This document shows positions 26,035 to 57,793 of a DNA stretch of 64,000 nt, one piece after another. The DNA is from Candidatus Hydrogenedentes bacterium UBA2224 (GTDB lineage: Bacteria; Hydrogenedentota; Hydrogenedentia; Hydrogenedentales; SLHB01). Within the stretch, counting starts at the first letter, position 1. Each line of letters opens with the position of its first letter. Location of the stretch: NCBI GenBank assembly GCA_002348185.1, contig DDYW01000181.1, forward strand, positions 77,531 through 141,530, in the 5' to 3' direction. The position numbers and the translations under genes are program-made. The notes beneath the pieces were generated by a model. It was not told where the DNA came from and ran no database searches. It saw only the letters and a list, made by a program, of their open reading frames with translations.

Positions 26035-26112
26035 CGGGGTGTAGCGCAGCCCGGTTAGCGCGCCTCGTTCGGGACGAGGAGGTCGGAGGTTCAAATCCTC
26101 TCACCCCGACCA
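26035..26112 (+). tRNA. tRNA-Pro (anticodon CGG)
   Basis: I folded the cloverleaf by hand. The acceptor is CGGGGTG/CACCCCG. The D-stem is GCGC/GCGC. The anticodon stem is CCTCG/CGAGG with loop TTCGGGA, giving anticodon CGG. The T-arm is GGAGG-TTCAAAT-CCTCT. The discriminator is A and the CCA is encoded. Confidence 0.85.
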
Positions 26113-29682: not shown

Positions 29683-29763
29683 GTCGGGAATCTGTTAAAT
29701 CCCTCCTGGAACCCGCCCGCTGAAGGCGCCTGTTGCATAACAATGACCGCTGGGGGGAAGAAA

Positions 29764-33218: not shown

Positions 33219-37054
<3,836 letters not shown>

Positions 37055-40006: not shown

Positions 40007-40489
40007 ATGGTTACAGAGCATGAACCCCTTGAAGCGCGGATCGTGCGCGTCCTCACGCACGAAGGCCTCTGGCTCGCGACAGCCGAGTCGTGCACGGGGG
40101 GCCTGATCGCTCATCGCATCACCAGTGTGCCGGGCGCGTCGGAGTGCTTCCTCGGCGGGGTGGTGGCCTATTCGAATGCCCTGAAGACAGACCTTCTCGG
40201 GGTGTCGCCGGGGACCCTGGCGGCCGCGGGCGCCGTCAGTCCGGACACCGCCCGCCAGATGGCCGAAGGCGCACGCGACCGCTATCGCGCCGACCTCTCC
40301 GTTGCGGTGACAGGCATCGCCGGCCCCGGGGGAGGTTCTCCGGAAAAGCCAGTGGGCCTGGTCTTCATCGCCGTGGCCTGGACGGGAGGCTGTGATGTTG
40401 CCCGCCACGCATTCTCGGGGGCGAGGGAAGACGTGAAACAACAGACGGCCGATATGGCCCTCGCCATGGTATGGGAGCGCATCCAGTGA
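40007..40489 (+). CDS. CinA C-terminal domain / nicotinamide-nucleotide amidohydrolase PncC-like
   Basis: LATAESCTGGL, GGVVAY.N and TGIAGP are present. Length is 160 aa from the internal Met; the track ORF starts at 39956. Confidence 0.8.
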   Translation: MVTEHEPLEARIVRVLTHEGLWLATAESCTGGLIAHRITSVPGASECFLGGVVAYSNALKTDLLGVSPGTLAAAGAVSPDTARQMAEGARDRYRADLSVAVTGIAGPGGGSPEKPVGLVFIAVAWTGGCDVARHAFSGAREDVKQQTADMALAMVWERIQ

Positions 40490-43400
40490 ACGCCGGATTC
40501 TGCCACTTGCACGTCCACACCGAATACAGCGTGCTGGACGGAGCGATCAAGGTCTCGGAACTTCTCGACCGCTGCAGAGACTACGGAATGCGCGCATGCG
40601 CCATCACCGACCACGGGGCGATGTTCGGCGTGGTCGATTTCTTTCAAACGGCCAAGTCCAAGGACGTCAAGCCGGTCATCGGGTCCGAACTCTACATTGC
40701 GCCGGGCCACCGCACCGACCGCTCGGCGAAGACGCAATCGGCCGCCTACAACCATTTGCTCCTGCTCTGCAAGAACGAAACGGGCTACCGGAACCTCTGC
40801 AAACTGAGTTCCATCGGTTACCTGGAAGGGTTCCATTACAAGCCCCGCATCGACTTCGAAACCCTGTCGCGTCATGCCGACGGGCTCATCGCTTCGACCG
40901 CGTGCCTGCGCGGCGAGGTCCCCCAGTTTCTCCTGCGCGAAGAATTCGAGAAGGCGGAAGAGGCGCTCGCGCGCTACATCAGCCTTTTTGGAAAAGAGAA
41001 CTTCTTCGTCGAACTCCAGGACCACGGCCTGTCCGAGCAACACCGCGTGAACCCCCGCCTCGTGGAGATGGCGCGCAAACACGGCCTGCTGCTTGCCGCG
41101 ACCAATGACTGTCACTACCTGAACAAGGATGACGCGGACGCACACGACGCCCTCTTGTGCATTCAGACCAATAAGACCCTCGAAGAGGAAAACCGTTTCC
41201 GCTTCCAGACCCGGGAATTCCATTTCAAAAGCCCCGAGGAAATGCGGGAAGCCTTCGCCGCCTGGCCCGAGGCGATCTCGAATACCGAGAAGATCGCCGA
41301 CATGTGCGAACTCGAGATCCCCCTGCACAAACACCTCATTCCCAAATACATGCCGCCCGCGGGTAAGGCCAAGCCGCAGTTTCTCCGGGAACTGGTCATG
41401 CAGGGACTTCAGGACCGCTACGAGGGCCATCCGGACACGCTGCATGTGGAACGCGCCGAATACGAACTGCGCATCATCGAGCAGATGGGCTTCGTGGACT
41501 ACTTCCTGGTGGTCTGGGATCTCATCAAGACCGCCCGGGACAAGGGCATTCCGGTGGGCCCGGGCCGCGGCTCGGGGGCGGGCAGCCTGGTGGCCTATGC
41601 CCTGACGATTACGAACATCGACCCGATCCGCTACAACCTGCTGTTCGAGCGTTTCCTGAATCCCGACCGCGTGTCCATGCCGGATTTCGATCTCGATTTC
41701 TGCTATACGCGCCGTCCCGAATTGATCGAGTACGTCCGCGAGAAGTATGGACCCGAGAATGTCAGCCAGATCATCACCTTCGGCCGCATGCTGGCCAAGC
41801 AGGCGATCCGCAATGTCGGGCGCGTGATGGGCATGAGCTTCGGCGACGTCGACCGCATCGCGAAGCTGGTCCCAGACGAACTGAAGATCACCCTCAAAGA
41901 TTCCCTTGAAAAAGAACCTGAACTCAAGAACCTGGTCAAGACCGATCCGCAGATTGCCAAACTGTGGAATCTGGCGACCCGCCTCGAAGGCACGATAGGC
42001 ACCCTGGGAACCCACGCCGCGGGCGTCATCATCTGCGATGAGCCCCTCACCGGGCATGTTCCGCTCTTCCAGGCGTCCGGAAGCGATGTTGTCGCGACCC
42101 AGTTCGAGATGAAGACCGCGGAACAAATCGGTTTGTTGAAGATGGACTTCCTGGGCCTGCGGACCTTGACCGTGGTGCATGACGCGGTTCGGTTCATCCA
42201 GGAGAACCGCGGCGTCCATATCGACATCGACGCGCTCGAGCCGGACGACGTGTTGACCTATGAGTTGTTGCGCTCAGGGCGCACCACCGGCGTGTTCCAG
42301 CTCGAAAGCTCCGGGATGCGCGACCTTTCCCGCCGCATCGGACTGGAAAGCCTCGAGGAAATCTGCGCCCTGGTCGCCCTGTACCGTCCGGGCCCCATGC
42401 AGCTCAAGGACCAGTACATCGAGAACAAGCACCATCCGGCCAAACTCACCTACGACCACCCGCTGCTCGAGCCCATTCTCAAAGAGACCTACGGCGTCGC
42501 TCTGTATCAAGAGCAGGTGATGCAGATTGTTCAGGCGCTCGCGGGCTTCTCGCTCGGCCAGGCCGACGAACTGCGCCGCGCCATGGCGAAGAAGAAGGCC
42601 GACCTCATGGAACGCCAGGGGGAGCAGTTCCTGAAAGGCGCGAAAGAAAACGGCATCGACGCGGACACCGCCACCTCCCTGTTCCAGAAGATCGAGCAGT
42701 TCGCGGGATACGGATTCAACAAGTCCCACAGCATGGCGTATGCGTTTGTGGCGTACCAGACCGCCTTCCTCAAAGCCAACTACCCGGTGGAATTCATGGC
42801 GGCGCTGCTCACCAGCGAATCGGGCAACCTCGACAAGGTCGCGCAGTACATTGAAGAATGCCGTCGCATGGGGATCGAGATTCTCCCCCCCGACGTCAAC
42901 CACAGCAGTTACGGATTCAATGTCGAGGGCAGCGCCATCCGTTTCGGCATGGGCGCGGTCAAAAACGTCGGCCGGGACCCGGTCGAGGCCATTCAGGCCG
43001 AGCGCGAAGCGAATGGGCCTTATAAGGACATCTTCGATTTCTGCGCGCGGCTCGACTCCCGGGTGCTCAATCGCCGCGTGCTCGAAAGCCTCAACCGGGC
43101 AGGCGCCTTCGAAAGCACGGGATGGAACCGCAGGCAGGTGGAGGAGTCCCTGGAATCGGCCATGAGCGAAGGACAAATCAACCAGCGGGAACGGGCTGCG
43201 GGCCAGACGTCGCTGCTCGAACTGATGGCCGGCGCGAGCGGCGAACCCATCATCCACAAACGGCCCGACGTCGAGGAATGGCCCGAGAACCAGTTGCTCG
43301 CACTGGAAAAGGAGGTCTTGGGCCTCTACGTAAGCAGCCACCCGCTGGCGCGGCACGCGGTCCTGCTCGAGCGGTTTTCGACGGTTACCCTGGCGGACCT

Positions 43401-43947
43401 CCCCTCCCTGGCCGAGGGGCACGAGGTGCGCATCGGCGGCCTGGTCTCCAACGTGAAAATCCACATCACGCAACGCAACCGCAAGATGGCCTTTGTCACG
43501 CTGGAAACCCTCGAAAGCCCCTGCGAGGTCGTCGTGTTCCCGGAACTGTTCGAGCAGAAGGCCGAACTGCTCGTGCCCGACATGATCGTCATGTTGCGGG
43601 CCAAGGTCAGCTACCGGAATGATGAGCCCAGCCTCCTTGCCGAGGACATCGTGCCCATCGACGAGACTCAGAAACAATTCACGGAGGCGGTGCACATCCG
43701 CTTGAGCACCGTCGGGCTCGACGAAGCCCTGCTCACCCGGCTCGCGGAACTCCTGGATACCCAACCCGGCGATTGCGATGTCTACCTGCACTGCATCACC
43801 CCCGACCACGACGAGGTCACCGTGCACGCCACCTCATCCTGCATGGTGGCGCCGTCTGAACGCCTCTGGCGCGGCCTGGAAGAACTTCTCGGAGAAGCGT
43901 GCCTGTGGTACTCGGGGGCGAACGGCTACCCCCGGCACTCGCGCTGA
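40471..43947 (+). CDS. dnaE: DNA polymerase III alpha subunit
   Basis: The PHP domain has CHLHVHTEYSVLDGA. It is collinear with DnaE throughout (fingers, HhH, OB). Length is 1158 aa. The alternative start GTG 40486 forms a GTGA overlap with the cinA-C stop. Confidence 0.95.
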   Translation: MGAHPVNAGFCHLHVHTEYSVLDGAIKVSELLDRCRDYGMRACAITDHGAMFGVVDFFQTAKSKDVKPVIGSELYIAPGHRTDRSAKTQSAAYNHLLLLCKNETGYRNLCKLSSIGYLEGFHYKPRIDFETLSRHADGLIASTACLRGEVPQFLLREEFEKAEEALARYISLFGKENFFVELQDHGLSEQHRVNPRLVEMARKHGLLLAATNDCHYLNKDDADAHDALLCIQTNKTLEEENRFRFQTREFHFKSPEEMREAFAAWPEAISNTEKIADMCELEIPLHKHLIPKYMPPAGKAKPQFLRELVMQGLQDRYEGHPDTLHVERAEYELRIIEQMGFVDYFLVVWDLIKTARDKGIPVGPGRGSGAGSLVAYALTITNIDPIRYNLLFERFLNPDRVSMPDFDLDFCYTRRPELIEYVREKYGPENVSQIITFGRMLAKQAIRNVGRVMGMSFGDVDRIAKLVPDELKITLKDSLEKEPELKNLVKTDPQIAKLWNLATRLEGTIGTLGTHAAGVIICDEPLTGHVPLFQASGSDVVATQFEMKTAEQIGLLKMDFLGLRTLTVVHDAVRFIQENRGVHIDIDALEPDDVLTYELLRSGRTTGVFQLESSGMRDLSRRIGLESLEEICALVALYRPGPMQLKDQYIENKHHPAKLTYDHPLLEPILKETYGVALYQEQVMQIVQALAGFSLGQADELRRAMAKKKADLMERQGEQFLKGAKENGIDADTATSLFQKIEQFAGYGFNKSHSMAYAFVAYQTAFLKANYPVEFMAALLTSESGNLDKVAQYIEECRRMGIEILPPDVNHSSYGFNVEGSAIRFGMGAVKNVGRDPVEAIQAEREANGPYKDIFDFCARLDSRVLNRRVLESLNRAGAFESTGWNRRQVEESLESAMSEGQINQRERAAGQTSLLELMAGASGEPIIHKRPDVEEWPENQLLALEKEVLGLYVSSHPLARHAVLLERFSTVTLADLPSLAEGHEVRIGGLVSNVKIHITQRNRKMAFVTLETLESPCEVVVFPELFEQKAELLVPDMIVMLRAKVSYRNDEPSLLAEDIVPIDETQKQFTEAVHIRLSTVGLDEALLTRLAELLDTQPGDCDVYLHCITPDHDEVTVHATSSCMVAPSERLWRGLEELLGEACLWYSGANGYPRHSR

Positions 43948-44262
43948 CGGGCCCCGCGCGTCAGGCTCGCACCCAGCCGCAAACGCCCGCTCAAACACGC
44001 GCTCGGCCAGGACGTTTCATGACCCGGGAGATTCCCGCACTAAGTCCATGTGGCACGCACGTTTCGCGCAGCGCGCCCTTGCCATGCGCCCGCGATTTCG
44101 GGCATACTGGCCACGGGGCGGTCATTACGCGTATGTCAGGACCGCAAGCAGCAGGAATGCACCGGGAACGTTCTCTGAGAGGCGCCCTCAAACGCGGGGC
44201 CTGCGGTGGGAAGCCGCCGTGTTGACTCTCCAGACACGGCCACGGGAGATTGGGGTGTCGCA

Positions 44263-44736
44263 ATGCAGTTAGAGACAGTACGGTTCGGGTCCCTCGAAGT
44301 GGCTCCGGATGCGGTGATCACATTCACGCAACCCATCCTGGGCTTTCAAGAGTATCGCCGTTTTGTGGTCCTCCCGGGGCCGAGCGAATATCTGTGGTGG
44401 CTTCAGTCGACGGAGTCCGGCGATCTCGCCTTCATTCTGATGGATCCCGCGGTGGTAGTTCCAGATTACCGCGTTGAAATCCGGCCTGCCGAACTCAGCG
44501 AGCTGGCCGTCGCCTCCATCGGCGAACTTGACGTCTATACACTGGTGGTCGTGCCCGAGGACAAGAGAAAAGTGCGCACCAATCTCCGGGCGCCCATTCT
44601 GATCAACCCCAAGCTGCGGCTGGCCAAACAGGCGCTCCTGGACCGCAGCGACTACCCCATTCAATTCTTCCTCGCGCAACCCCATCAGGGCCAGGGACAG
44701 GCCCGGGAGGCATCCAATGCTGGTCTTAACCCGTAA
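44263..44736 (+). CDS. fliW: flagellar assembly factor FliW (CsrA antagonist)
   Basis: [43 protein letters not shown] and AKQ are present. Length is 157 aa from the internal Met (track ORF from 44206). GGGAGATTGGGG lies upstream. Confidence 0.8.
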
Positions 44737-44938
44737 AGAGGATGAAAGCATCATGATTGGGGACGACATCGAGGTCAAAGTCCTTGATCTGAAAGAAAGC
44801 CAGGTGAAATTGGGAATCGTCGCCCCAAAGTCCGTGGCCGTGCACCGGCGGGAGGTCTATCTGGCCATCCAGAGCGAAAACACGCAGGCGGCCTCCGCGG
44901 CGCAGATCGACTCCATCACGGATCTGATTCAGCGATAA
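44717..44938 (+). CDS. csrA: carbon storage regulator CsrA
   Basis: [25 protein letters not shown]...[19 protein letters not shown] is present. Length is 73 aa with the longer C-terminal tail typical of FliW-regulated CsrAs. It overlaps fliW by 20 nt. Confidence 0.9.
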
Positions 44939-44960
44939 CCGGCATGAGGGGACATCGCTA

Positions 44961-45587
44961 ATGGAACTCATCGTAGACGGAAGCGCCAGAGGCCTCGGAG
45001 AAGAGCCCCAGGGCAGTATCTTCGACCTGGTGGTCGCGCTCGGCAGGCAGCTTCAGGAGGACGGCCGTTCCATCATGACCGTCCGAATCGACGGAAGCGA
45101 GATCAGCGCCGGAAACCTGGTGGAATCCATGCGAGACAAGCCGGTGACAAGCGTCCGGCAGATCGTGATCACTTCGGAAGACACCCGGACGCTGGTGAAC
45201 GAGTCCCTGTCGGACATGCAGGCCTCGCTGCCCGAGCTTCCGGTGGCGTGCCAGGAACTGGCCCGAGTGTTTCAGAGCGAGACGCCGGACGCCGGCTACG
45301 AGCCGTTCCAGCAGCTTGCGGCGATATGGGGCGCCATCAAGGAGCGGGAACTGATGGTCGCGAACGCCCTCGAGATCTCGCTGGAAGAACTCCTGATCGG
45401 CGAACTCACGGTCAAACAGTTTCATGATGATCTCAATGCCTATTTGCGGGAAGCCACCGAAGCCCTCAAAAAGAGGGATTCGGTGTTGTTGGGGGACCTG
45501 CTTGAATACGAACTGGCGCCACGGGCCGAAAAAGAGAGCGCGATCGTCGCGATTCTGATGAAAGAGGCCGAACAATTTGCGGGGTAG
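44961..45587 (+). CDS. hypothetical acidic protein (208 aa), no recognisable domain
   Basis: It lies between csrA and the glycosyltransferase genes. The next gene starts 2 nt after its stop. Confidence 0.5.
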   Translation: MELIVDGSARGLGEEPQGSIFDLVVALGRQLQEDGRSIMTVRIDGSEISAGNLVESMRDKPVTSVRQIVITSEDTRTLVNESLSDMQASLPELPVACQELARVFQSETPDAGYEPFQQLAAIWGAIKERELMVANALEISLEELLIGELTVKQFHDDLNAYLREATEALKKRDSVLLGDLLEYELAPRAEKESAIVAILMKEAEQFAG

Positions 45588-45589
45588 GA

Positions 45590-48500
45590 ATGGCCGCGCC
45601 GCGCATCCTGACATTCAATTTTCATGAGCCTTACCTGTGCCTGATGGCGCGGACCGGCCTGCCCTTTGCCATCGGTGAATATGACAGCCCCCCCTTCGCG
45701 CGGAAATGGCACGAGCGCTACCGCCCCATCCCTCCGAACTTCACGTTTCTCAACGAAAACACCTGGCGACGCGACCTTGCGCAGGGCCGCTTCGACGTCG
45801 TCATCGCGCAAAACGAGATGAATGCGGCCGGCCTCTCCAAAGAGGCGCTGCTCAGCGACACCCCCCTCCTTCTGGTCTGCCACAACCGGCGCAGCTTCCT
45901 CGAAGCAACCATGAAGAATGGCCCCGACAGCCGCTACGATACGTTTCAGCGCCTCCTGGAAACGCTCCGGAGAATTGCCCGGTTTGTGTTCATCTCTGAG
46001 ACCAAACGTGATGATTACGCCATCCCGGGCATCGTCATCTGCCCCGGCATCGACGTCGAGGAATACGGCGGCTATACGGGAGAAAACCCGGGGGTGCTGC
46101 GCGTCGGCAACGCCTTGGGCCAGCGGGACGTCATGTTCGACGTCGGCTTTCAGGAACGGGTATGTGCCGGTTTTGCCAACCGCCTCGCGGGCGACAATCC
46201 GGACATCCCGGAGTCCCAGCCGGCCGCGTCCTTCGATGACCTGCGCCGGCTCTATCGCTCCTTCCGGTGCTATCTGCACGTCACCCGGGAAGCCTACGAG
46301 GACGGCTACAACCTCGCCCTGCTCGAAGCCATGGCCACAGGCATGCCGGTGGTCTCTCTCGCGAACCCGACATCTCCCCTCACGGACGGGAAAGACGGTT
46401 TTCTGTCGTACGACGCCGATGTCCTCCGGGGCCACATCGCTATGCTGCTCGATGATCTGTCCTGCGCCCGGGAGATCGGCGCTCGCGCCCGTGAAACCGT
46501 CGCGCAGGCGTTTCCCATGGCCCCCTTCGTCGAGGCCTGGCGCGAAACCATTCTGTCGGCCGCCGAACTCAGCCCCCGGCAAAGCACAAGGACCCGGACA
46601 CGCATCACGCCGCCTCCCCTGCCAACTACCGCCGTGCCCGCGACGGAGATCCTCCTTCACTACATGGCGTCGCCGGTCACCACGGGAAGATATTTTGAGT
46701 GGGCCCTGCGCAAACGCCATCACGTCGTCACCGCGGGGTTCCGGTGCCCGGAAGCGATTCTAAGCCGGTGGGGATTTCCGGGCGAACCGCCCGCGTACGG
46801 TCCCCACGACGTGGAACTCAGGCTCGAGACGCCCTACCGGGAACTCATGGGCATGCTGCCAGACGGATTTGCGCCCCGTCTGTACCTCTGGGTGGATTCC
46901 GGCCCGAAACAGGTGGCGCCCGACATCGACTGCCTGCGCATCCCGAAAGCCTGTTACCTCATCGACACGCACCTGGCCCCCGAATTGCGCATCGACATCG
47001 CCCGGCATTTCAATTTCGTGTTTCTGGCGCAGAAAGCCCAAGTGCCGCTCTTCCAGGACGCCGGCCTCGCAAACGTCTGCTGGTTGCCGCTCGCGTGTTC
47101 ACCCGAGCTGCACGACGTGGGACAACCCGAACGCATCTACGACGTGGCCTGTATCGGCCGGATTCAGGATGACCCCCACGACCGCCGCGCCAGGATTCTC
47201 GACCGCGTACGCAGCGCGTTTCCCCGGCACCGCATCGGCCAGCAATGGCCCCCGGACATGGCGCGAACGTATGCCCAGTCGAAGATCGTCGTGAACGCGG
47301 CCGTCAACAACGACCTCAACATGCGCGTATTCGAGGCGATGGCGTCGGGCGCGCTCCTCATTACTGACCGCGCGGAAGGCCTGTTGGACCTCTTCGAGGA
47401 AGGCGAACATTTCGTGCTCTACCGCGATGAGGATGAGCTGTGCCCGCTCATCGAGCGCTACCTCGCTGACCGCGAGGCGCGGGAACGCATCGCGCAGCAG
47501 GGGCGAGACCTCGTGCTTGCGCAACATACGTACGACCTGCGCATGGAGCAATTACTCGGATGCGTATTCGAAGCCGCGGGCGTGTTCGGCGGCTACCGCG
47601 GGGAATCCCGGTACCACTACGGCGGCTACTACTGCTCCCCGCGCGCGGAACTGGCGGTCCATGTCCCCCCGGGGGCGAAGCGCGTCCTCGACGTCGGGTG
47701 CGGGGGCGGCGCGTTCGGACGATCGCTGAAAGAGCGCGGCGTACAGGAGGTCGTCGGGATCGAGATTGACGAGCGCGCGTGCGCCCTCGCCAGGGAAGTG
47801 CTTGATGACGCCCTCGCCGGCAACATCGAACAGATGGAACTGCCTTTCGAACCCGGGCACTTCGATTGCGTCACGTTCGGGGATGTGCTTGAACATCTGG
47901 TTGACCCGGCGGCAACGCTGCGCAGGATTGCGCCGTTCCTCGCCCCGGAAGGCCTTGCGGTCGCCAGCATCCCCAACGCGCGTTTCTGCCAGGTGGTGCA
48001 GATGCTTGCCGAAGGCCGGTGGAAATACGAAGATGCCGGCATCCTCGACCGGACGCATCTGCGGTTCTTCACCGCGACGGAAATGCAGATGCTTTTCCAG
48101 GGGGCGGGCTACGAGATCCTGAAGATGCTGCCCCTCTCGATGCTTCAGGCGGAGCTCCTTCCTCGCAACGCTGACGGAGGTTTCACGCTCGGCAAACTGA
48201 CCGTCGGCCCCTTAAATGACGCGGAGTATCAGGATTTTCTCGTGTACCAGTACCTCGTCGTCGCACGGAGCGCCGCCGGGACGCCGCTGGAACGCGCACG
48301 GGCCGCGTTGTCCGAAGGCCGTTTCGAGGAGGCCTGCACCCTGGCCGCCTCGGCCGCGAACGCGGACCCCACCGAGCGCAAGTTCATCATCGGGCAGGCG
48401 CTGGGCCGGCTTGGAAAACTCGAGGCCGCCGAATCGGCCTTGCGCGAAGCCTGCGCGTCCAGCCCCGCCCGCGCGGACATCGTCGGGCAACTGGGGGTGC

Positions 48501-48928
48501 TGCTGGTCGCCATGAACCGAAGCGCCGAGGCCATCCCCTGTCTGGAGCAGGCCGTTGCCGCCAACCCGGGGGACCACCGCGCCCTCGGCGCCTGGGGTCT
48601 GGCCCTGCTCGCCAGCGGCAACCCCGAAGAGGCCTTCACGAAGCTCAGGGCGTCTCTGGAGATTCACTTCGATAACGCGCCGCTCATGGACTCCTTTGCC
48701 GCCCTCGGCGAAACGCTGGAACGATGGTCGGATATGGAGCCGGTGCTTCGCCGGTTTGTGGAGTTTTACCCCGCAAACACCGCCATGTCGCTGCGCCTTG
48801 CCCGCATTCTGGCCCGGCTGGGAAAAACCGGCGAGGCGCGCGAGCGCTTGGAAACCGTGCTCTTGTTCGACACCGGTAACGCAGACGCGCGTCAGTTGCT
48901 TGAAGAAATTTCGTCCGGGGGCGCATAA
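45590..48928 (+). CDS. multidomain enzyme: GT4 glycosyltransferase + CgeB-like glycosyltransferase (Glyco_trans_1_2) + class I SAM methyltransferase + C-terminal TPR repeats
   Basis: GT4 has EDGYNLALLEAMATGMPVV. The CgeB-like domain has NMRVFEAMASGALLITD...LYRDEDEL...AQHTYDLRMEQLL. The SAM-binding motif is VLDVGCGGGAFG with post-I FDCVTFGDVLEHLVDP. The tail is TPR-like Ala/Leu repeats. It is one 1112-aa ORF. Confidence 0.8.
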   Translation: MAAPRILTFNFHEPYLCLMARTGLPFAIGEYDSPPFARKWHERYRPIPPNFTFLNENTWRRDLAQGRFDVVIAQNEMNAAGLSKEALLSDTPLLLVCHNRRSFLEATMKNGPDSRYDTFQRLLETLRRIARFVFISETKRDDYAIPGIVICPGIDVEEYGGYTGENPGVLRVGNALGQRDVMFDVGFQERVCAGFANRLAGDNPDIPESQPAASFDDLRRLYRSFRCYLHVTREAYEDGYNLALLEAMATGMPVVSLANPTSPLTDGKDGFLSYDADVLRGHIAMLLDDLSCAREIGARARETVAQAFPMAPFVEAWRETILSAAELSPRQSTRTRTRITPPPLPTTAVPATEILLHYMASPVTTGRYFEWALRKRHHVVTAGFRCPEAILSRWGFPGEPPAYGPHDVELRLETPYRELMGMLPDGFAPRLYLWVDSGPKQVAPDIDCLRIPKACYLIDTHLAPELRIDIARHFNFVFLAQKAQVPLFQDAGLANVCWLPLACSPELHDVGQPERIYDVACIGRIQDDPHDRRARILDRVRSAFPRHRIGQQWPPDMARTYAQSKIVVNAAVNNDLNMRVFEAMASGALLITDRAEGLLDLFEEGEHFVLYRDEDELCPLIERYLADREARERIAQQGRDLVLAQHTYDLRMEQLLGCVFEAAGVFGGYRGESRYHYGGYYCSPRAELAVHVPPGAKRVLDVGCGGGAFGRSLKERGVQEVVGIEIDERACALAREVLDDALAGNIEQMELPFEPGHFDCVTFGDVLEHLVDPAATLRRIAPFLAPEGLAVASIPNARFCQVVQMLAEGRWKYEDAGILDRTHLRFFTATEMQMLFQGAGYEILKMLPLSMLQAELLPRNADGGFTLGKLTVGPLNDAEYQDFLVYQYLVVARSAAGTPLERARAALSEGRFEEACTLAASAANADPTERKFIIGQALGRLGKLEAAESALREACASSPARADIVGQLGVLLVAMNRSAEAIPCLEQAVAANPGDHRALGAWGLALLASGNPEEAFTKLRASLEIHFDNAPLMDSFAALGETLERWSDMEPVLRRFVEFYPANTAMSLRLARILARLGKTGEARERLETVLLFDTGNADARQLLEEISSGGA

Positions 48929-48977
48929 CAAGAAAGGGTTGTAGGGGAGGACGCGTGAAACCACGGGTACCACAGAG

Positions 48978-50762
48978 ATGATGAAGCCCGCACGAGAATG
49001 GATGGCGGAACTCGCGGAGGTCGTGCCGCCCCCGGATGTGTGCCTGGAGGAGGGGCGCGAAGGCGAACCGACCCTGCGTATTGGCACTGCCTATCTCCAC
49101 AGCCGCTACAAACCCCGCGAAGAAGCCAAACGCCTGCTCGACTCCGCGGAGCTGGACCCCGACCGTCCGGTGCTTGTCGTCGGCGTGGGTCTGGGTTATC
49201 ACATCCTGGAGCTTCTCGACCGCGGATACCGCGTTGCCGTGGCCGAACCCGACCGCGCCATTGCCGCCCTGGCGGTGGGGGGACTTCTGCGTGATCGCGA
49301 GGTTCTGCTGGGCATAGGCGAGCCGGACGCGATCGCCGCCTCTCCCTTCTTCCAGCGCTTCGTCCGCGATACCCCGCAGGTATTCGTGCATCCTCCGTCC
49401 GCCCGCATCCAACCGGCATTCGCGGAAGCGATGACGGCCCGGGTATCGCGTGCCGCGCTGCTCGGACAGCGCCTGAGAATCGCCGTCGTGGGCCCGATGT
49501 TCGGCGGGTCCCTGCCCATTGCCGGACATCTGGTCCGCGCGTTCCAGAAGCTGGGCCATCAGACCGTCTATGCCGACAACAGCCTGGCCTGGAACCTCTA
49601 CGAGACCATGAGTGCTTCGGTGAAATCGCGCAAGGCCGCCCATCAACTGGGCGAACTCCTCGTCCATTTTCTGGGGGAATGGTCGTATGCCCGGGTCATG
49701 GAATTCGCGCCCGACATCTGCGTGGTCATGGCGCAGGCCCCGGTCTCGCCCCAGTTCCCGCTTCGACTGGCCCCCGAGGGCATCGTCACGGCGTTCTGGT
49801 ATGTCGAGAACTGGCGGCACCTGCCGTATTGGAAAGAGCTTGCGCCACACTACGACTTCTTCTTCCACATCCAGCCCGGCGCCTTCGAGACCCAGCTCCG
49901 CGAGGCGGGATGCCAATATCAGGCCTGTGTACTGACGGGCTGCGACCCGGAGGTGCACCGCCCCGTAACCCTGGAAGACGCGGAACGCGACGAGTTCGCC
50001 TGCGACGTTTCCTTCGCGGGAGCGGGTTACATGAACCGGAACCAGGTGCTGGCCGGCCTCACGGACTATGCCCTGAAAATCTGGGGCGTGAACTGGGCCC
50101 ATCCCTCCCTCCGGCCCGTCCTTCAACGCCCAAACGAGCGATTCACGCCTGAATTGTTCGCGAAAATCGTCGCAGGCTCGAAGGTCAACCTGAACCTGCA
50201 TTCGAGCACGAGTTTCCCGGGCGTGGATCCCCATTGCGACGCGATTAACCCCCGCGTGTTCGAGATCGCCGCCTGCGGAGGGTTCCAGCTCTGCGACCCG
50301 TGCACAGGGCTTGACGCCTGCTTTGATTTCGCCACCGAGTTGCCCGTCTACACGTCGCTGAAGGAGTTACGGGACAAAATCGACTATTATCTCGCCCATT
50401 CCGCCGAACGCGCACAGATCGCCGCGGCTGCCCGCGCTCGCGCACTCCGCGACCACACCTACGAAAAACGCGCCGCGCAGATGCTCGAGCGGATACTCGA
50501 TGCGTTCGGCGCGCGCATTCTTCGGAAAGGCATCCGGGTGCAGCGCACGGTCGCCGAGATCAAAGACCGCTGCGCAGAGGATGCCGCCCTGGCGGCCTTC
50601 CTCGATACCCTGCCGTCCGATGCGCTGTTCGACCACGAAACCGTAAATGCGCACCTGCCCACGGCCATGATGGCCCACAACCGGGCCGAAGGGCTGTTCG
50701 CTTACTTGAGGGAGTTGCGCAACTCAGCCGAAGCGCTTCTCCAACTGCGGGACACGGAGTGA
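48978..50762 (+). CDS. Maf-like (DUF115 / MptE-like) protein fused to CgeB-like glycosyltransferase domain
   Basis: The N-terminus has YLHSRYKPREEAKRLL...VLVVGVGLGYHILELLD, which I recognise as the motility-accessory-factor/DUF115 pattern. The C-terminus has NPRVFEIAACGGFQLCD...DHTYEKRAAQMLE, the Glyco_trans_1_2 pattern. The domain calls are from memory, not from a search. Confidence 0.6.
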   Translation: MMKPAREWMAELAEVVPPPDVCLEEGREGEPTLRIGTAYLHSRYKPREEAKRLLDSAELDPDRPVLVVGVGLGYHILELLDRGYRVAVAEPDRAIAALAVGGLLRDREVLLGIGEPDAIAASPFFQRFVRDTPQVFVHPPSARIQPAFAEAMTARVSRAALLGQRLRIAVVGPMFGGSLPIAGHLVRAFQKLGHQTVYADNSLAWNLYETMSASVKSRKAAHQLGELLVHFLGEWSYARVMEFAPDICVVMAQAPVSPQFPLRLAPEGIVTAFWYVENWRHLPYWKELAPHYDFFFHIQPGAFETQLREAGCQYQACVLTGCDPEVHRPVTLEDAERDEFACDVSFAGAGYMNRNQVLAGLTDYALKIWGVNWAHPSLRPVLQRPNERFTPELFAKIVAGSKVNLNLHSSTSFPGVDPHCDAINPRVFEIAACGGFQLCDPCTGLDACFDFATELPVYTSLKELRDKIDYYLAHSAERAQIAAAARARALRDHTYEKRAAQMLERILDAFGARILRKGIRVQRTVAEIKDRCAEDAALAAFLDTLPSDALFDHETVNAHLPTAMMAHNRAEGLFAYLRELRNSAEALLQLRDTE

Positions 50763-50766
50763 CGGC

Positions 50767-52461
50767 ATGCGTATCCTGGTAGCCCAGATGACCCGCATGG
50801 GAGACATGCTGCAGAATTCCACCCTGACCCGCGCGTTGCGCCAGCGCTACCCTGACGCCCACATCACCGCGATGGTGCGGCCCCTGGCGCGCGGTATCGC
50901 TGAACGCAATCCCGACATCGACGACATCATCCTGTACGAGGAAGACGCGATGTTCTGCGATTTGCGCAGCCGCGATTCGGACCGCTTGCTCCGCGCCTAC
51001 CGGAGCGCCGCCGCGCTGGTCGACGACCTGAACGCGCGCCGGTTCGACGTCGTCTACAACTGCACGCTCAGTATCGCTTCGGCCATGTTGCTGAAACTGG
51101 TCCGCGTCCCGCGGACCATCGGGGCGCATCTCAGTGACGACTGGCGTTTCGTGCTTCGTGGACGCTGGACCAACTACTTCTTCACCAGCGTGTATCAGCG
51201 CGCGTACAGCGACATCAACATCAGCGATGTCTTCCGCAATCTCATGGAGGACGCGCCGCCCGTCTCCGGGCTCAGTCTGGCCATCACGGACGATGACCGC
51301 CGCGAGGCGCGGGAGATTCTCGCCAGGCATGGCGTCCGCGAGCGGGATTTCGTGGTCTGCATGCAACTCGGGGCCAGCGACACGTCCAAGCGCTGGCCCG
51401 TTGCCCAGTTCGCGGAACTGGCGCGCCGCCTGGCCGCTGAGAAGAACGCGAGAATCTGCCTGCTGGGCGTGGAATCCGAAGCCCCGCTGGGAGACGCCTT
51501 CGAGACCCAGGCGCCGGGGCTCGGCATTCACCTTTTTGGCAAGACCACCATTCCGCAACTGGCCGCCCTCCTCGAGTCCGCGCGCGTGCTGGTCACCAAC
51601 GATACGGGCACCATGCATGTTGCCGCGGCCGTGCGCTGTCCGATTCTCCTGCTGTCGGTGGGATACGTTCATTTTCGCGAGACCGGCCCCTACGGCGAAG
51701 GCCATCTGGCGCTCGAACGCCGGAAAGACTACCTCGCCCCCATGAACAAAGACGAGACGTCCGCCGACGAGCGCGGCGCCATCCCCCCCGGACCCGTGAC
51801 GGACCTGCTCGAACTGCTGCTCGCTCCCTCCCCGGAGGGGTGCATCCCTTCCCTGCCCGACTCGCCCGAGTGGGCCAGCCTCGACGTCTATCAGTCCCGG
51901 TTTGCCCCGGACGGCTTTCTCGAGTGGTATCCGGTGATTCGCCGTCCCATGACCGAGACCGATTTCCTGCGTGTCGCGTACCGCAACACCTGGATCGCCC
52001 ATCTCTGCCCCTCCGTTTCCCGCGAGACGCTTCTCGACGGGATTCGGCGGGTCGCGGCCTGTTTTGCGCCGGACGGCACGGCCGCGCTCGAGGGTTGGCA
52101 TCAACACTGGAGCGCGGTCTTCCGCCAACTGGAACAGCTCGCACGGCAGGGAAGCCAGAAGACGGAACAACTCAGGGCCTGCCTCCGCCACGGCAGGAAC
52201 ATCGCCACCGCCCGGGAGATTGTGGGCGAGCTCATGCGGCTGGATGAAGACACGCGCCTCTTCGCGGAGTTGAACGGGGGATGCCGCCCGCTGATCAGCA
52301 TCGCGCGTTTCCAGCGCGACAATCTCGAGGGGGCCGACCCGATGCCGCTTGCGGAAATGACGCAGGAGATCTACCGGGAACTTTCCGAGCGCGCCGCGCT
52401 GATGCGGGCGCACTTCGACGCCATCCGCGTCGCCATGCATGCCGTGGACACGGAGACCTAG
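50767..52461 (+). CDS. GT9-like glycosyltransferase (heptosyltransferase family) with about 230-aa C-terminal extension
   Basis: The N-terminus is MRILVAQMTRMGDMLQNSTLTRALRQRYPDAHI. The later GKRWP and VTNDTGTMHVAAA motifs are typical of GT9. The start is 4 nt after the Maf-like stop. Confidence 0.7.
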   Translation: MRILVAQMTRMGDMLQNSTLTRALRQRYPDAHITAMVRPLARGIAERNPDIDDIILYEEDAMFCDLRSRDSDRLLRAYRSAAALVDDLNARRFDVVYNCTLSIASAMLLKLVRVPRTIGAHLSDDWRFVLRGRWTNYFFTSVYQRAYSDINISDVFRNLMEDAPPVSGLSLAITDDDRREAREILARHGVRERDFVVCMQLGASDTSKRWPVAQFAELARRLAAEKNARICLLGVESEAPLGDAFETQAPGLGIHLFGKTTIPQLAALLESARVLVTNDTGTMHVAAAVRCPILLLSVGYVHFRETGPYGEGHLALERRKDYLAPMNKDETSADERGAIPPGPVTDLLELLLAPSPEGCIPSLPDSPEWASLDVYQSRFAPDGFLEWYPVIRRPMTETDFLRVAYRNTWIAHLCPSVSRETLLDGIRRVAACFAPDGTAALEGWHQHWSAVFRQLEQLARQGSQKTEQLRACLRHGRNIATAREIVGELMRLDEDTRLFAELNGGCRPLISIARFQRDNLEGADPMPLAEMTQEIYRELSERAALMRAHFDAIRVAMHAVDTET

Positions 52462-52464
52462 CCC

Positions 52465-54132
52465 CTATTTCGCCTCAGGCGAGAGCAGGCTCCGCGCGTG
52501 TTCGAGGCTGACCGCAGAGACCGAACCGTCGAGCAGACGCGCCAGCTCGCGCACCCGGTCCTCGTCGGCGATACGCGCTACCGAAGTGACGGTCCGCTTC
52601 TTCTGCGTTGCTTTGGCCACGTGGAAATGCGTTTCGGCGGCGGCCGCGATCTGCGGCAGATGCGAGATGCAGATCGTCTGGTGCGAGGCCGCGAGTTCGC
52701 TGAGTTTTGCCGCCACTTTTGTCGCCACGGCCCCGCCCACCCCCGCGTCAATCTCGTCGAAGATCAGTGTGGGAATGGTGTCGGCGTTCGCAAACACACT
52801 CTTGAGCGCCAGCATGACCCGCGAGATCTCGCCGCCCGACGCCACGTGACGCAACGCCTTCAACGGTTCGCCGGGATTAGCGGCCAGCAGAAACTCTACC
52901 CGGTCGGTCCCGGTCGAACAGAGTTCTCCGCGCTCGAACCGGGTCTCAAACTGGCCTCCCTTCATCCCGAGTTCCGCGAGGGCGGCAGCGATCTGTTTGT
53001 CGAGCGTGCGGGCAGCCTTCTTGCGCTGTTCGGACAAGATCCCGGCAAGACACCGGGCCTCTTCCAGCAGGACGCCGTGCCGGCGCCTCAATTGCGCAAG
53101 GCACTCATCGCGATGTTCAAACGCCGCGACTTCGGCGCTGGCGCGTTCACAATACGCCAACACCGCGTCAATCGATTCGCCGTACTTCCGTTTCAACGCG
53201 CTGATCAGCGTCAGCCGCGCGTTAATACCCTCAAGCTCCTGCGGATCAAACTCGATTTCCGTGGTAAATTCACGCAGTTCCGCGGCAACATCCTCAATCT
53301 TGTCGCGCGCCTCCGACAGACGCTCTACAAGGGGCACGAAACGGCTGTTGATTCGGGCCAGTTCCTCCACGTCGCCCACCGCGGCGGCCAGGGCATCCAC
53401 CACCGCCCCTTCATCGCGCTCGTGAAGCGTGGCATACGCATGCGAACTCAGTTCGAATATCCGCTCGGCATGCGTGAGCAGGTCGCGCCGCTCCCGGCTC
53501 TCCTCCTCCTCGCCAGGTTGCAGACCCGCCGTCAGGATCTCCCGGACCTCGTGCTGCAGAAATTCAACGCGCCGGGCGCGTTCCCGGTCGTCCACCTCCA
53601 GGGCGGCCAGGTCGCGTTCCACATCACGCAGGGCCGACACCGCTTCCGCAACGGCGCCGGCGGCCCTCTCCGCGCCGGCAAACCCGTCCAGCAGATCCAG
53701 TTGACGGGCGGGTTTGAGGAGGGACTGGTGTTCGTGCTGCCCGTGCAGATCGACCAGCTCGTCGCCAATGGCAGCAAGCACTGCCAGAGGCACCGGCGCG
53801 CCGCCGGCATAGGCCCGGCTCCGGCCGTCCGGGGTGACCACGCGCGACAGGATCAACACCCCGTCGTCGAGCGCAATATCCGACTCCTGAAGCGCCGCCG
53901 CCAAATCGCGGGCCGGTGTGCCGATGCGGAACACGGCATCCACGCGGGCCCGGTCCGCGCCGTCGCGCACCCCTTCCGCGGACGCGCGCGCTCCGAGCAC
54001 CAGGTTCAGCGCCCCGACAATGATGGATTTGCCGGCGCCCGTTTCCCCCGTCAGGACATTGAATCCGGGGCCGAACTCGAGCTCGATGTCGTCGATTAAC
54101 GCGTAGTTCTGTATGTGCAGGCTTTCAAGCAT
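52465..54132 (-). CDS. recN: DNA repair protein RecN
   Basis: The N-terminus is MLESLHIQNYALIDD...FNVLTGETGAGKSII. There is a long coiled-coil middle. The C-terminus has LIFDEIDAGVGG. Length is 555 aa. Confidence 0.9.
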   Translation of the reverse strand: MLESLHIQNYALIDDIELEFGPGFNVLTGETGAGKSIIVGALNLVLGARASAEGVRDGADRARVDAVFRIGTPARDLAAALQESDIALDDGVLILSRVVTPDGRSRAYAGGAPVPLAVLAAIGDELVDLHGQHEHQSLLKPARQLDLLDGFAGAERAAGAVAEAVSALRDVERDLAALEVDDRERARRVEFLQHEVREILTAGLQPGEEEESRERRDLLTHAERIFELSSHAYATLHERDEGAVVDALAAAVGDVEELARINSRFVPLVERLSEARDKIEDVAAELREFTTEIEFDPQELEGINARLTLISALKRKYGESIDAVLAYCERASAEVAAFEHRDECLAQLRRRHGVLLEEARCLAGILSEQRKKAARTLDKQIAAALAELGMKGGQFETRFERGELCSTGTDRVEFLLAANPGEPLKALRHVASGGEISRVMLALKSVFANADTIPTLIFDEIDAGVGGAVATKVAAKLSELAASHQTICISHLPQIAAAAETHFHVAKATQKKRTVTSVARIADEDRVRELARLLDGSVSAVSLEHARSLLSPEAK

Positions 54133-55005: not shown

Positions 55006-56784
55006 TCACGCTTGCGGAACGGCTTTTCCTCGCATGCTGCTCCAGGCCATCAGCCCCCCGATCGCCACCAGGATCATCCCAAGAATAATGTCCAGCTTGC
55101 GCGGCACCGGTTCGCTGATCCACGGAACCAAGGCCAGCATCATCACGCCGATGACCGCGACACACACGCCCACGATCCGGAACGGCGACATGATGGCCGC
55201 GCCGGCGGTCTCGTGCTCTTTGTCCTCGGGCAATTCCCCAATGGGGGTGTCCAGGCGCTTCAAAAACGTTTCAGCCCGCGCAAGCTCATCGCTGCGGGCG
55301 GGGACCAGCAGGCTGGTCAGTTCCATCACCAGGTACGTGACAATGGCCGTGCTCAAGAACATGGCGATCTCTAGCTTCACCTCAAATCTGCCGAAAAAGA
55401 ACGCCTCGCTGTCCGGAACCCAGGATATGCCCGCAAATGTCAGCGGGGACTTGTGGAACGACAGCGCGAACAGCAGCAGACCCACCACGGTGCCGCACAG
55501 AAAACCGATGACCGCGCTTCGAGCGGTGTGTCGGCGCGACAACAGGCCCAGCAGCATCGGCACCGCCACCGGCGCGGTCGCCACGCCAAACAGAGTCACC
55601 ATGATGCGGAACATGTTCTCCGCCCGTCCCCGCGCGAGAAGCAGCGCGGTCCCCAGAGCAACGACCCCGACAAGCAGCGTCATCAGACGGCCCACCGCCA
55701 CGAGTTCCTTCTGAGACGCGGAGGGACGGATCAGACGCCGGTATACGTCGTTGGTGAGCACTCCGGCACAGACGTTGTAATCACCGCTCAGGGTGGACAT
55801 GGTCGCCGCGAACATCGCCGCGATGGCCAGGCCCAGCATGCCCGCCGGGAGGAGCTGCGCGCACAGAATCGGGTAGACGTCGCCCGCATCCTGGAGCGCG
55901 GGCACGAACTGCCGCGCCGCGATTGCGGGAAAGAACATCAACGGCGGGCCGATGATGTAGAGCGCTATGACCATCCATCCCACCTTGAGCGCGTCGCGCT
56001 CTTTGGGCACGCAGTAATACCGCTGGATGAGCGCCCAGTTGATGCTGCTCCACGCCAGGCTGTACAGCATGACCAGCGGGATCACATAGGCCCAGCTGAA
56101 TTCAGGGGAGGTCATATTGAAGAAGCCCTCGGGCGAATTGGCGAGAATCTGGCCCAGGCCGCCCGCACGCTGAATGGACAACGGCAGAATCACAAGCAAA
56201 CCCACGGTCAGCACCACGAACTGCACAAAATCGGTCACCATCACGGCCCACAGACCGCCCATGAACGTGTAAACCAGCATAATCCCGCCCGCGCCGAGGA
56301 TGCTGTACTTGATGTCGACGCCCGTGCAGATCGAGATGAACTTGCCCGTGGCAAACAGCTTGATCCCGTCGTCTATCATGCGCACCGGAATTCCCTGCCA
56401 GGCAAAGATTTGCCGCAGCAGGGGGTTGTAGCGTGTCTCCAGATACTCCACGGGACTGTCGATGCGCGCGCGCCGCCACCGTTTCGCAAACAGCAGCACG
56501 CTGAACAGCGTGGCCGGCACCGCCACCCAGAGCAGGGTCACCCCCACCCATCCGTACCGGTAACAGATCGACGGGTAGAACACAAACGCCGCCACGCTGA
56601 AACTCGTCATGTAGAACGAAACGCCGCTCAGCCACCACGGGATGCTGTTGCCCCCCCGGAAATAGTCCTTCATGCGCTTCATGTACCGGTAGAAATAGAC
56701 GCCGATAGCGAGCATCAGAATGAAATACCCGGCTATCATGAAATTGTCCGGAAGTTGCAGACTCCCCTGCGCCGCGTCATCCAT
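55006..56784 (-). CDS. sodium:solute symporter family (SSS) transporter
   Basis: It has about 13 TM helices. The N-terminus has FMIAGYFILMLAIGVYFYRYMK, with GG....W.... SSS-type regions. AGGAGA lies 9 nt upstream of the ATG at 56784. Confidence 0.8.
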   Translation of the reverse strand: MDDAAQGSLQLPDNFMIAGYFILMLAIGVYFYRYMKRMKDYFRGGNSIPWWLSGVSFYMTSFSVAAFVFYPSICYRYGWVGVTLLWVAVPATLFSVLLFAKRWRRARIDSPVEYLETRYNPLLRQIFAWQGIPVRMIDDGIKLFATGKFISICTGVDIKYSILGAGGIMLVYTFMGGLWAVMVTDFVQFVVLTVGLLVILPLSIQRAGGLGQILANSPEGFFNMTSPEFSWAYVIPLVMLYSLAWSSINWALIQRYYCVPKERDALKVGWMVIALYIIGPPLMFFPAIAARQFVPALQDAGDVYPILCAQLLPAGMLGLAIAAMFAATMSTLSGDYNVCAGVLTNDVYRRLIRPSASQKELVAVGRLMTLLVGVVALGTALLLARGRAENMFRIMVTLFGVATAPVAVPMLLGLLSRRHTARSAVIGFLCGTVVGLLLFALSFHKSPLTFAGISWVPDSEAFFFGRFEVKLEIAMFLSTAIVTYLVMELTSLLVPARSDELARAETFLKRLDTPIGELPEDKEHETAGAAIMSPFRIVGVCVAVIGVMMLALVPWISEPVPRKLDIILGMILVAIGGLMAWSSMRGKAVPQA

Positions 56785-56883
56785 CGAGGTCGTTCTCCTG
56801 GGTGCTTGCTGAAACGCGGCGGCCCTCACCCCCGGGCCGCCGCGTCTGATTCTCCCAAACGGGCAAAACGGGCCGGACGCCGC

Positions 56884-57762: not shown

Positions 57763-57793
57763 CGCCAGTCTCCTCCCGCTCGTTTGATCCGAA

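Follow-up and report, generated by a model that had tools for sequence, protein, structure and literature searches.

The sequence analysed here, called the window throughout, is a 64-kb stretch (64,000 nucleotides, nt) of the genome of Candidatus Hydrogenedentes bacterium UBA2224 (contig DDYW01000181.1, positions 77,531 to 141,530 of the forward strand), and the subject of this work is an operon of six genes within it, which opens with fliW and csrA and continues with four genes designated by open reading frame (ORF) number, ORF3 to ORF6. The genes and their immediate flanks are (aa, amino acids):

40471-43947: dnaE, the upstream flank, separated from fliW by a 315-nt gap
44263-44736, + strand: fliW, 157 aa, PF02623
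44717-44938, + strand: csrA, 73 aa, PF02599, overlapping fliW by 20 nt
44961-45587, + strand: ORF3, 208 aa, DUF8042, 22 nt after csrA
45590-48928, + strand: ORF4, 1112 aa, 2 nt after the ORF3 stop
48978-50762, + strand: ORF5, 594 aa, 49 nt after ORF4
50767-52461, + strand: ORF6, 564 aa, 4 nt after ORF5
52465-54132: recN, convergent, 3 bp from ORF6

This layout was taken from an ORF map and from a gene call made independently on a metagenome contig of identical sequence; the two agree, and both the packed plus-strand arrangement of six genes and the flanks reported in a preliminary description of the locus (dnaE upstream, recN convergent and 3 bp away) stand. The independent call gives an alternative ORF5 start at 49002, with which the ORF4-ORF5 gap becomes 73 nt. 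The window matches contigs of ENA sample ERZ27315072 and JGI 3300001580, and the matching metagenome contig stops ~0.6 kb beyond the window. An Rfam scan of the operon region returned no RNA family. Screening of ~45 genes of the window by Pfam or precomputed Pfam annotation returned no flagellar family other than FliW, such that the earlier remark that there is no flagellin nearby holds for the entire 64 kb; chemotaxis genes were likewise absent from the 64-kb window.

In order to follow the operon beyond this genome, the ORF3 alignment was scanned over one genome per species, resulting in 80 loci, all ORFs of which were searched with the window proteins. After de-duplication, 67 distinct Hydrogenedentota-type loci remained, with ORF3 identities of 35-92%, and the order fliW-csrA-ORF3-ORF4 is kept in these wherever the contig allows. 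ORF5 is present in 53 of the 67 loci and ORF6 in 43, with most absences being contig ends; L006, L016 and L028 are truly without both genes. The junctions are conserved as well, and bear out the view of the six genes as a tightly coupled unit: in 52 of 62 loci fliW and csrA overlap by exactly 20 nt, the csrA-ORF3 gap is mostly 12-20 nt, and the ORF3-ORF4 gap is 2 nt in half of the loci (31/62). ORF4 is without a Shine-Dalgarno sequence in the window and in most species, and this, together with its position 2 nt past the ORF3 stop, implies termination-reinitiation, so that ORF4 translation is probably coupled to that of ORF3.

The surroundings of the operon vary. dnaE lies upstream in ~11 loci and is directly adjacent in five, the window included; a DegT aminotransferase gene, sometimes accompanied by an epimerase gene, is directly upstream of fliW in ~11 loci; recN is downstream in seven, and the remaining loci have other neighbours. 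Conservation of order and junctions down to 35% ORF3 identity despite such reshuffled flanks suggests that the linkage is selected and not accidental. The preliminary description had allowed for fliW-csrA and the transferase genes being unlinked in relatives; comparison of the csrA neighbourhoods gave the opposite outcome.

A few loci depart from the common pattern or carry unexpected labels. In L037 a HicA/HicB-like toxin-antitoxin pair on the opposite strand (9020-9815) is inserted between csrA and ORF3, the sole junction of this kind to be broken (~1 kb). In L049, ORF4 and ORF5 are separated by an insertion (14018-15942) of a gene for a 428-aa P-loop ATPase and a 213-aa gene, which resemble a small cassette of mobile or defence type, and in L061 and L092 the unit ends after ORF3. 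The metagenome-assembled genomes (MAGs) of L011, L016, L025, L028-L031, L042, L047, L053, L060, L064, L071 and L075 carry operons of this type, with order and junctions kept at ORF3 identities of 35-70%, and are titled 'uncultured Nitrospiraceae/Nitrospirales bacterium'. All of these are probably mislabelled.

Promoter, leader and CsrA sites

Two elements precede fliW:

44079-44108, + strand: sigma70-like promoter found by promoter scan (-35 TTGCCA, 18-nt spacer, -10 CATACT preceded by G)
44115-44262, + strand: predicted fliW 5' leader of ~148 nt, its start placed from the -10 box

In 58 Hydrogenedentota loci the pattern TTGC-N18-(T)GCATACT precedes the fliW start by 24-160 nt. The fliW promoter is the sole TTGC-N-CATACT site in the window, and the fliW-upstream sites make up 58 of the 127 NGCATACT sites in 1.03 Mb of related DNA. 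In L044 and L052 the same -10 box also stands before sequence that by eye looks like tRNA. The fliW promoter resembles that of the tRNA-Pro gene of the window, which helps to define the local housekeeping consensus, and we read it as a strong housekeeping-type element. That tRNA-Pro (CGG) lies at 26035-26112 (+), with a promoter at 25991-26020 composed of TTGACA-N17 and a TACT-type -10 box. A sigma28 promoter was considered and not seen by eye upstream of fliW; the conserved sigma70-like motif is present instead. In B. subtilis, fliW-csrA is transcribed from a housekeeping-type promoter, like the one described here.

The leader is ~148 nt long and GGA-rich in the clade of the window and about 25-50 nt long in most other species. 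Its fold is no more stable than those of shuffled sequences (z=+0.8), and the GGA motifs in its middle are already lost in the nearest relatives, L009 and L010, where only the Shine-Dalgarno block ACGGGAGATTGGGG is kept. Taken together, these results do not support a structured CsrA site in the leader. Only 24 of 58 loci have a second GGA no further than 30 nt from where fliW starts; the GGA near ORF3 is merely its Shine-Dalgarno sequence, and ORF4 has none. The GGAGG Shine-Dalgarno sequence of csrA sits inside fliW, with a GGA at -11 in 52 of 58 loci. It is possible that CsrA acts at fliW by simple occlusion of the Shine-Dalgarno sequence.

Proteins encoded by the operon

FliW matches PF02623 at E=7.8e-33 (with 113 bits, the cut-off being 25) and, in the PDB, the FliW structures 2AJ7 (4.5e-21) and 5DMB_A (1.3e-14); it scores under the NCBIfam equivalog cut-offs and is therefore regarded as divergent. 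CsrA matches PF02599 at E=1e-25 and the NCBIfam CsrA model with 98.6 bits (cut-off 73), and its top PDB match is 5DMB_D (6e-19), the CsrA chain of the Geobacillus FliW-CsrA complex. Judged by these matches, the two proteins are of the FliW-partnered type. The adjacency of fliW and a csrA of this type is shared with the FliW-CsrA-flagellin switch of Bacillus subtilis, Geobacillus and Campylobacter jejuni, whereas the operon described here has no flagellin, flgK/L, fliS or fliD nearby and has four large modification genes translationally packed behind csrA.

The last three of these genes encode enzymes that between them have glycosyltransferase (GT), S-adenosylmethionine (SAM)-dependent methyltransferase and tetratricopeptide repeat (TPR) domains:

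45698-46456, + strand: ORF4 domain 1, GT4/GT1-type GT-B, aa 37-289 (PF13439, PF13692)
46994-47557, + strand: ORF4 domain 2, DUF3880 (weak) plus Glyco_trans_1_2, CgeB-like GT-B, aa 469-656 (PF13524, E=2.5e-41)
47630-48121, + strand: ORF4 domain 3, class I SAM methyltransferase, aa 681-844 (PF13489, E=1e-24; PF08241, E=3.4e-17)
48281-48859, + strand: ORF4 domain 4, TPR repeats, aa ~898-1090 (TPR_19, TPR_2, TPR_16)
49083-49448, + strand: ORF5 N-terminal domain, aa ~36-157, Rossmann, methyltransferase-like fold with a partial Maf N-terminal signature
49794-50489, + strand: ORF5 GT domain, aa 273-504, DUF3880 (weak) plus CgeB-like GT-B (PF13524, E=1.2e-33)
51013-51699, + strand: ORF6 GT9 domain, aa 83-311, heptosyltransferase-like (PF01075, E=6.8e-24)

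The preliminary description had assigned GT4, CgeB-like, SAM methyltransferase and TPR domains to ORF4, a GT9-like domain to ORF6 and a fusion of Maf (DUF115) and CgeB-like domains to ORF5; all of these held except the Maf assignment, PF01973 being absent. No match to PF01973 was found in ORF3-ORF6 with Pfam at E<=0.01 or with NCBIfam, in the N-terminal 290 aa of ORF5 at E<=10, or in 48 ORF5 orthologues. What the orthologues do show is part of the Maf N-terminal model PF20157: the window ORF5 matches it at E=0.32 across 19 residues only, 14 of the 48 orthologues match it at E<=0.01 (best 2.3e-7), and two of 10 orthologues scanned individually pass its 23.5-bit cut-off (L081 with 33.4, L063 with 24.7), with every match spanning only model positions ~80-165 of 228. 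Glyco_trans_1_2 is present in all 48 orthologues and DUF3880 in 47. Since it is without PF01973 and has a strong Glyco_trans_1_2 domain, we regard ORF5 as a CgeB-like GT-B enzyme and reject it as a Maf/DUF115 protein. A profile of the ORF5 orthologues matched KsgA-type class I methyltransferases in the PDB (2e-5, positions 56-154), and the matched region holds a GxGxG motif and HPP at the position of methyltransferase motif IV. ORF6 scores below the cut-off of all NCBIfam heptosyltransferase models, and its C-terminal 253 aa have no Pfam match; ORF4 weakly matches NCBIfam exopolysaccharide (EPS)/PEP-CTERM GT4 models, all far under cut-off. No membrane or lipid-carrier family was found by Pfam in the six operon products.

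Comparison with the Maf- and FlmG-type flagellin glycosylation islands reveals both likenesses and differences. In those systems the TPR domain at the C terminus of Maf-1 (bioRxiv 10.1101/2023.12.03.569772) and the N-terminal domain of FlmG bind flagellin. Cytoplasmic multidomain transferases with TPR fused to catalytic domains are common to both arrangements, as is a methyltransferase, and the Maf N-terminal signature in ORF5 orthologues is a further likeness. The TPR domain of ORF4, which is fused C-terminally to the catalytic domains, is by analogy with FlmG and Maf-1 a candidate domain for binding an acceptor protein. However, the catalytic domains here are GT-B (GT4-like and CgeB-like) and GT9, not MAF_flag10/DUF115; pseudaminic or legionaminic acid genes are not adjacent, and the island is attached to fliW-csrA instead of standing beside flagellin. 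Against the CgeB-like/DUF3880 glycosyltransferases (PF13524, PF12996), ORF4 domain 2 and ORF5 match strongly and differ in being fused to TPR, methyltransferase or Maf-N-like domains and in their motility context. The CgeB name derives from a Bacillus spore-maturation protein.

ORF3 is acidic, as had been noted, with an isoelectric point of 4.38. Precomputed annotation assigns PF26154 (DUF8042) to the identical protein and to 120 of the 120 homologues listed, and additionally gives a faint PF27299 (TP0873_N) match; the local Pfam copy was without the PF26154 model, hence ORF3 had no match there. The AlphaFold model of ORF3 (pLDDT 89.8) has a small alpha/beta domain at the N terminus (residues 1-75) and, after it, a four-helix bundle (~75-207), which holds the conserved motif LLGDLLEYELAPRAE. 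In the protein collection 318 homologues are detectable, and among the 120 best of these 10 are labelled, eight of them as Candidatus Hydrogenedentes/-ota/-ales. A profile search over 1.84 billion representatives gave the DUF8042 family 2194 members at 50% identity, 500 of them at E<=1e-10, and nearly all members listed are ~205 aa.

Two loci link DUF8042 to true Maf proteins. In L091 the DUF8042 gene is directly upstream of, and co-directional with, a Maf gene (PF20157+PF01973), with a gap of 31 nt (9258-11799 for the pair); in L093 an isolated DUF8042 gene is followed after 4 nt by a co-directional Maf gene (PF01973; 10001-12305), with no flagellar gene in range. Aligned over its full length, ORF3 is 27% identical to the L091 protein and 24% identical to that of L093, and the three have in common the C-terminal motif L-x-D-L-L/M-E-Y-E-x-A/S-P. 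The standalone pair in L093, together with that in L091, suggests a general partnership of DUF8042 with transferases, and ORF3 is probably a partner or specificity factor of a transferase.

A model for such a role is GlfM of Shewanella oneidensis (SO_3260), a cis-encoded four-helix bundle of 89 aa, which has been shown experimentally to be the specificity factor of Maf-2; it binds Maf-2 and bridges it to flagellin, and an aspartate in its last helix is essential (bioRxiv 10.1101/2023.12.03.569772). Compared with GlfM as described, ORF3 is also small, soluble and cis-encoded, with a modelled four-helix bundle and an acidic last helix, and the conserved D77 and E80 of GlfM have counterparts of equal spacing in the invariant D179 and E182 of ORF3 (D-x-x-E, last helix). 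In contrast to GlfM, ORF3 has 208 aa, an extra N-terminal alpha/beta domain and, in the window, a partner transferase that is not Maf. On account of its position, its fold class and the invariant D-x-x-E of its last helix, with the TPR domain of ORF4 completing the parallel, ORF3 may play a GlfM-like role; we regard this analogy as a lead rather than as proof of homology.

Relation to flagellin and proposed function

The flagellar context missing from the window was found around homologous modules in other lineages, for which the 14 most distant scan loci and four contexts of intermediate family members were compared. In L080 (Calditrichaeota) the order is FlgL-GT9-[GT1_2+TPR]-[DUF3880+GT1_2]-GT9-[DUF3880+GT1_2]-ORF3 homologue-small ORF-flagellin-FliD, the first [DUF3880+GT1_2] protein matching ORF5 at 4e-92 and the second GT9 protein matching ORF6 at 3e-52. 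L081, with the module between flgL and flagellin, and L076 (Zixibacteria), with the module upstream of flagellin, are like L080. The Bdellovibrionia loci L084 and L086 have flagellin-FliD-FliS and, further on, GT9-GT9-ORF3 homologue; in L082 (Spirochaetia) an ORF3-like gene follows flaB-flaB-fliD, and in L087 (Brevinematales) one precedes cheR-cheB-cheA. On the Treponema pallidum map, TP0873 adjoins fliD as well. Two further clusters also contain the switch genes: L083 (Geobacteraceae) has FlgN-FlgK-FlgL-CsrA-FliW-flagellin-FliD with an ORF3-like gene 2.8 kb beyond, and L091 has flagellin-FlgN-FlgK-FlgL-FliW-CsrA-FliS, two divergent transferase genes (Maf and GT2/TPR), DUF8042-Maf, FlgM and a second flagellin. 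In L090, DUF8042 lies within a GT/TPR/GT9 island with no flagellar genes in range. Transferase genes thus stand beside flagellin in the homologous modules of L076, L080, L081, L084, L086 and L091 and in no Hydrogenedentota locus. The modules near flagellin in Calditrichaeota, L081, Zixibacteria and Bdellovibrionia support the earlier view that the transferases are of a flagellin-associated kind.

We consider it fairly probable that the locus represents a Hydrogenedentota-wide operon with its own promoter, which unites FliW-CsrA with a cytoplasmic machine for flagellin-type O-glycosylation and methylation and which is detached from the flagellin locus. Most likely, such an operon would have originated in a late-flagellar cluster (flgK-flgL / fliW-csrA / glycosylation island / fliC-fliD), of which the block of fliW-csrA and the island would have stayed joined in the phylum while its physical linkage to the flagellin gene was lost. 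The parts of the machine would be ORF3 as partner, ORF4 with its two GT-B domains, methyltransferase and TPR, the CgeB-like ORF5 with its Maf-N-like domain and the GT9-like ORF6. In the proposed mechanism FliW would retain new flagellin in the cytoplasm, ORF3 and/or the TPR domain of ORF4 would recruit the FliW-held flagellin, and the transferase domains would glycosylate and methylate it ahead of export; free FliW would sequester CsrA, and free CsrA would repress flagellin translation. Co-transcription and coupled translation would then fix the ratio of sensor, repressor and modification enzymes. Observed directly are the genes and their domains, the conserved junctions and promoter, and the homology of the module to flagellin-linked modules elsewhere; flagellin as the substrate, an adaptor role of ORF3 and any regulatory tie between CsrA/FliW and glycosylation are inferred. 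A published model, offered there as speculation, has FliW retain flagellin in the cytoplasm for as long as its glycosylation is unfinished (PMC5466977). The preliminary description had raised two options, relocation of the module away from the flagellin locus and control of, or titration by, a different glycosylated substrate; the comparative data favour relocation, and no evidence favours the second.

Several observations weigh against this reading. No flagellin or flagellar structural gene lies within 10 kb of the operon in ~60 Hydrogenedentota loci or in the window; the screen covered ~1 Mb of Hydrogenedentota flanks with E. coli and B. subtilis flagellin as approximate queries and with every ORF from flagellar loci in other phyla, and apparent flagellar matches in L030 proved to be response-regulator and kinase domains. 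Abyssobacteria are filed under the phylum Hydrogenedentota by NCBI, and published 'Hydrogenedentes' flagellins may belong to Abyssobacteria instead. The promoter, being housekeeping-like and not sigma28-like, does not hint at a place of the operon in a flagellar transcription hierarchy. A search for conserved structured CsrA sites, with GGA in a hairpin, in the fliW leader and before ORF3 and ORF4 (upstream of 44961 and 45590, as the preliminary description had proposed) found none. NeuB/PseI-type (Pse/Leg, pseudaminic/legionaminic acid) families are absent from the Pfam lists of the window, L004 and L006, with no nonulosonic-acid genes adjacent, and PDB searches with ORF3 returned generic four-helix bundles only. 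Finally, modules of DUF8042 with glycosyltransferases also occur away from flagellar genes, in L090, L093, L073/74/79 and L085, so that the association with flagellin is not universal.

An indirect sign of motility comes from L013 (DUZM01000030.1, MAG_17963_hgd_111; operon at 9308-10627). This MAG is reported to carry a magnetosome gene cluster (PMC7449369), and at least one operon-bearing species is therefore predicted to be magnetotactic; magnetotactic bacteria are, proposed exceptions aside, flagellated according to the literature.

The absence of flagellin within 10 kb in ~60 species and an ambiguous literature leave room for a module that modifies a protein other than flagellin, with FliW-CsrA co-opted to sense or regulate that protein, e.g., after loss of flagella. 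The housekeeping-type promoter and the modules away from flagellar genes in several lineages point the same way, and candidate substrates would be abundant secreted or surface proteins such as the N-methyl/DUF1559 pseudopilin-like proteins, whose genes are found at a distance of a few kb from the operon in the window and in L004 and L006. However, such genes are frequent (two in 64 kb), and their proximity may therefore be due to chance; in the systems studied, flagellin and CsrA are the only partners that FliW is known to bind; ORF3 homologues pair with true Maf and sit inside late-flagellar clusters; ORF5 orthologues carry the Maf N-terminal signature; and there is the predicted magnetotaxis of at least one operon-bearing MAG. 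On balance we find a non-flagellin substrate quite unlikely. Far less credible still is that the transferases build a cell-envelope glycan (lipopolysaccharide core, EPS or capsule) and neighbour fliW-csrA by coincidence: the heptosyltransferase-like GT9 domain of ORF6, the EPS/PEP-CTERM matches of ORF4, far below cut-offs as they are, and the lack of an identified acceptor protein would fit it, whereas the tightly conserved junctions in ~60 species, the six products devoid of membrane or lipid-carrier families, the fusion of TPR and methyltransferase domains to GT domains, the occurrence in other phyla of homologous GT9 and CgeB-like genes that are flanked by flgL and flagellin and the pairing of ORF3 homologues with Maf transferases all speak against it.

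Another alternative agrees with the detached flagellin-modifying operon that we favour on substrate and on chemistry; regulatory coupling is all that sets the two apart. Here the linkage would be an evolutionary leftover, with flagellin being modified, no cross-talk between CsrA/FliW and glycosylation, and a gene order inherited from the late-flagellar cluster. L091 and L083, where fliW-csrA and glycosylation genes or an ORF3 homologue share one late-flagellar cluster and not one operon, are as this would predict, as is the want of a conserved CsrA site before ORF3 or ORF4. The four-gene core order and the near-identical junctions in ~60 species, kept with ORF3 diverged down to 35% and flanks reshuffled, argue instead for selection on co-expression, and we accord the leftover a real if small chance of being right. 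That in Hydrogenedentota protein glycosylation and the FliW-CsrA switch are functionally wired together, beyond mere adjacency, also appears doubtful to us. In one version FliW and CsrA would gauge the pool of an unmodified substrate, perhaps not flagellin, as in a flagella-less lineage; in another, DUF8042 would bridge FliW-bound flagellin to the transferase, and the glycosylation state would feed back on translation. If the wiring were real, flagellin glycosyltransferases with unrelated catalytic folds would have in DUF8042 (~2200 representatives) a general and so far overlooked partner.

All parts of the operon are of known kinds, namely the FliW-CsrA switch, islands for flagellin glycosylation, flagellin transferases with TPR domains and helpers of the GlfM type. 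New are the joining, at operon level, of fliW-csrA to a glycosylation module, a unit that stands apart from flagellin and is fixed throughout a phylum; the set of transferases, with GT-B and GT9 domains and a Maf-N-like domain on a CgeB-like enzyme; the company that DUF8042 keeps with flagellin transferases of unrelated folds; and the sharply conserved promoter. A full-text literature search on FliW, CsrA and flagellin glycosylation found no description of a fliW-csrA operon with glycosylation genes and without flagellin, in agreement with the earlier impression that the arrangement is undescribed. Flagellin glycosylation and FliW-CsrA homeostasis have so far been studied separately, and a phylum-wide operon that unites both independently of the flagellin gene is genomic evidence for selected co-expression. 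Additionally, DUF8042, a large family that is so far uncharacterised, emerges as coupled time and again to flagellin transferases that differ in catalytic type, and the CgeB-like and GT9 domains, together with the Maf-N-like domain fused to GT-B, provide candidate flagellin transferases of non-Maf, non-FlmG type. The operon-bearing organisms are uncultured; a GlfM-like adaptor role is directly testable elsewhere, in tractable organisms carrying DUF8042-Maf pairs.

Other features of the window

The rest of the window contains housekeeping and sugar-metabolism genes, a gene for an extracytoplasmic function (ECF)-type sigma factor, an HDOD/GGDEF pair, one tRNA-Pro and two N-methyl/DUF1559 genes. 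The latter (SBP_bac_10, pseudopilin-like) lie at 37449-38372 (-) and 59912-60934 (-), one on each side of the operon and within ~7 kb of it; L004, L006 and L090 also have such genes close to the operon, which may just reflect how abundant they are in these genomes. The DegT/DnrJ-type aminotransferase gene at 57794-59146 (-) encodes a twin-arginine-like N-terminus, RRAFLKTTGAAAAAG, and its neighbours at 56884-57975 (-) and 55006-56829 (-) encode a xylose-isomerase-like TIM-barrel protein and a sodium:solute symporter. We considered this DegT gene as a displaced partner of the operon and rejected it, its identity to the fliW-adjacent DegT genes being only 28-30% and its N-terminus being of the twin-arginine-like kind.

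Four large ORFs without a Pfam match have a strong coding-type bias in G+C content at third codon positions, encoding 1163 aa at 5481-8972 (-), 847 aa at 9246-11789 (+), 479 aa at 29743-31182 (+) and 480 aa at 33219-34661 (-). The HDOD/HD-domain gene overlaps the GGDEF diguanylate cyclase gene by 4 nt (23335-25679, -), and the two may constitute a cyclic di-GMP signalling pair. Lastly, two adjacent, convergent genes at 61388-62791 (+) and 62832-63995 (-) encode neutral/alkaline ceramidase-like proteins (PF04734), a family unusual for bacteria.

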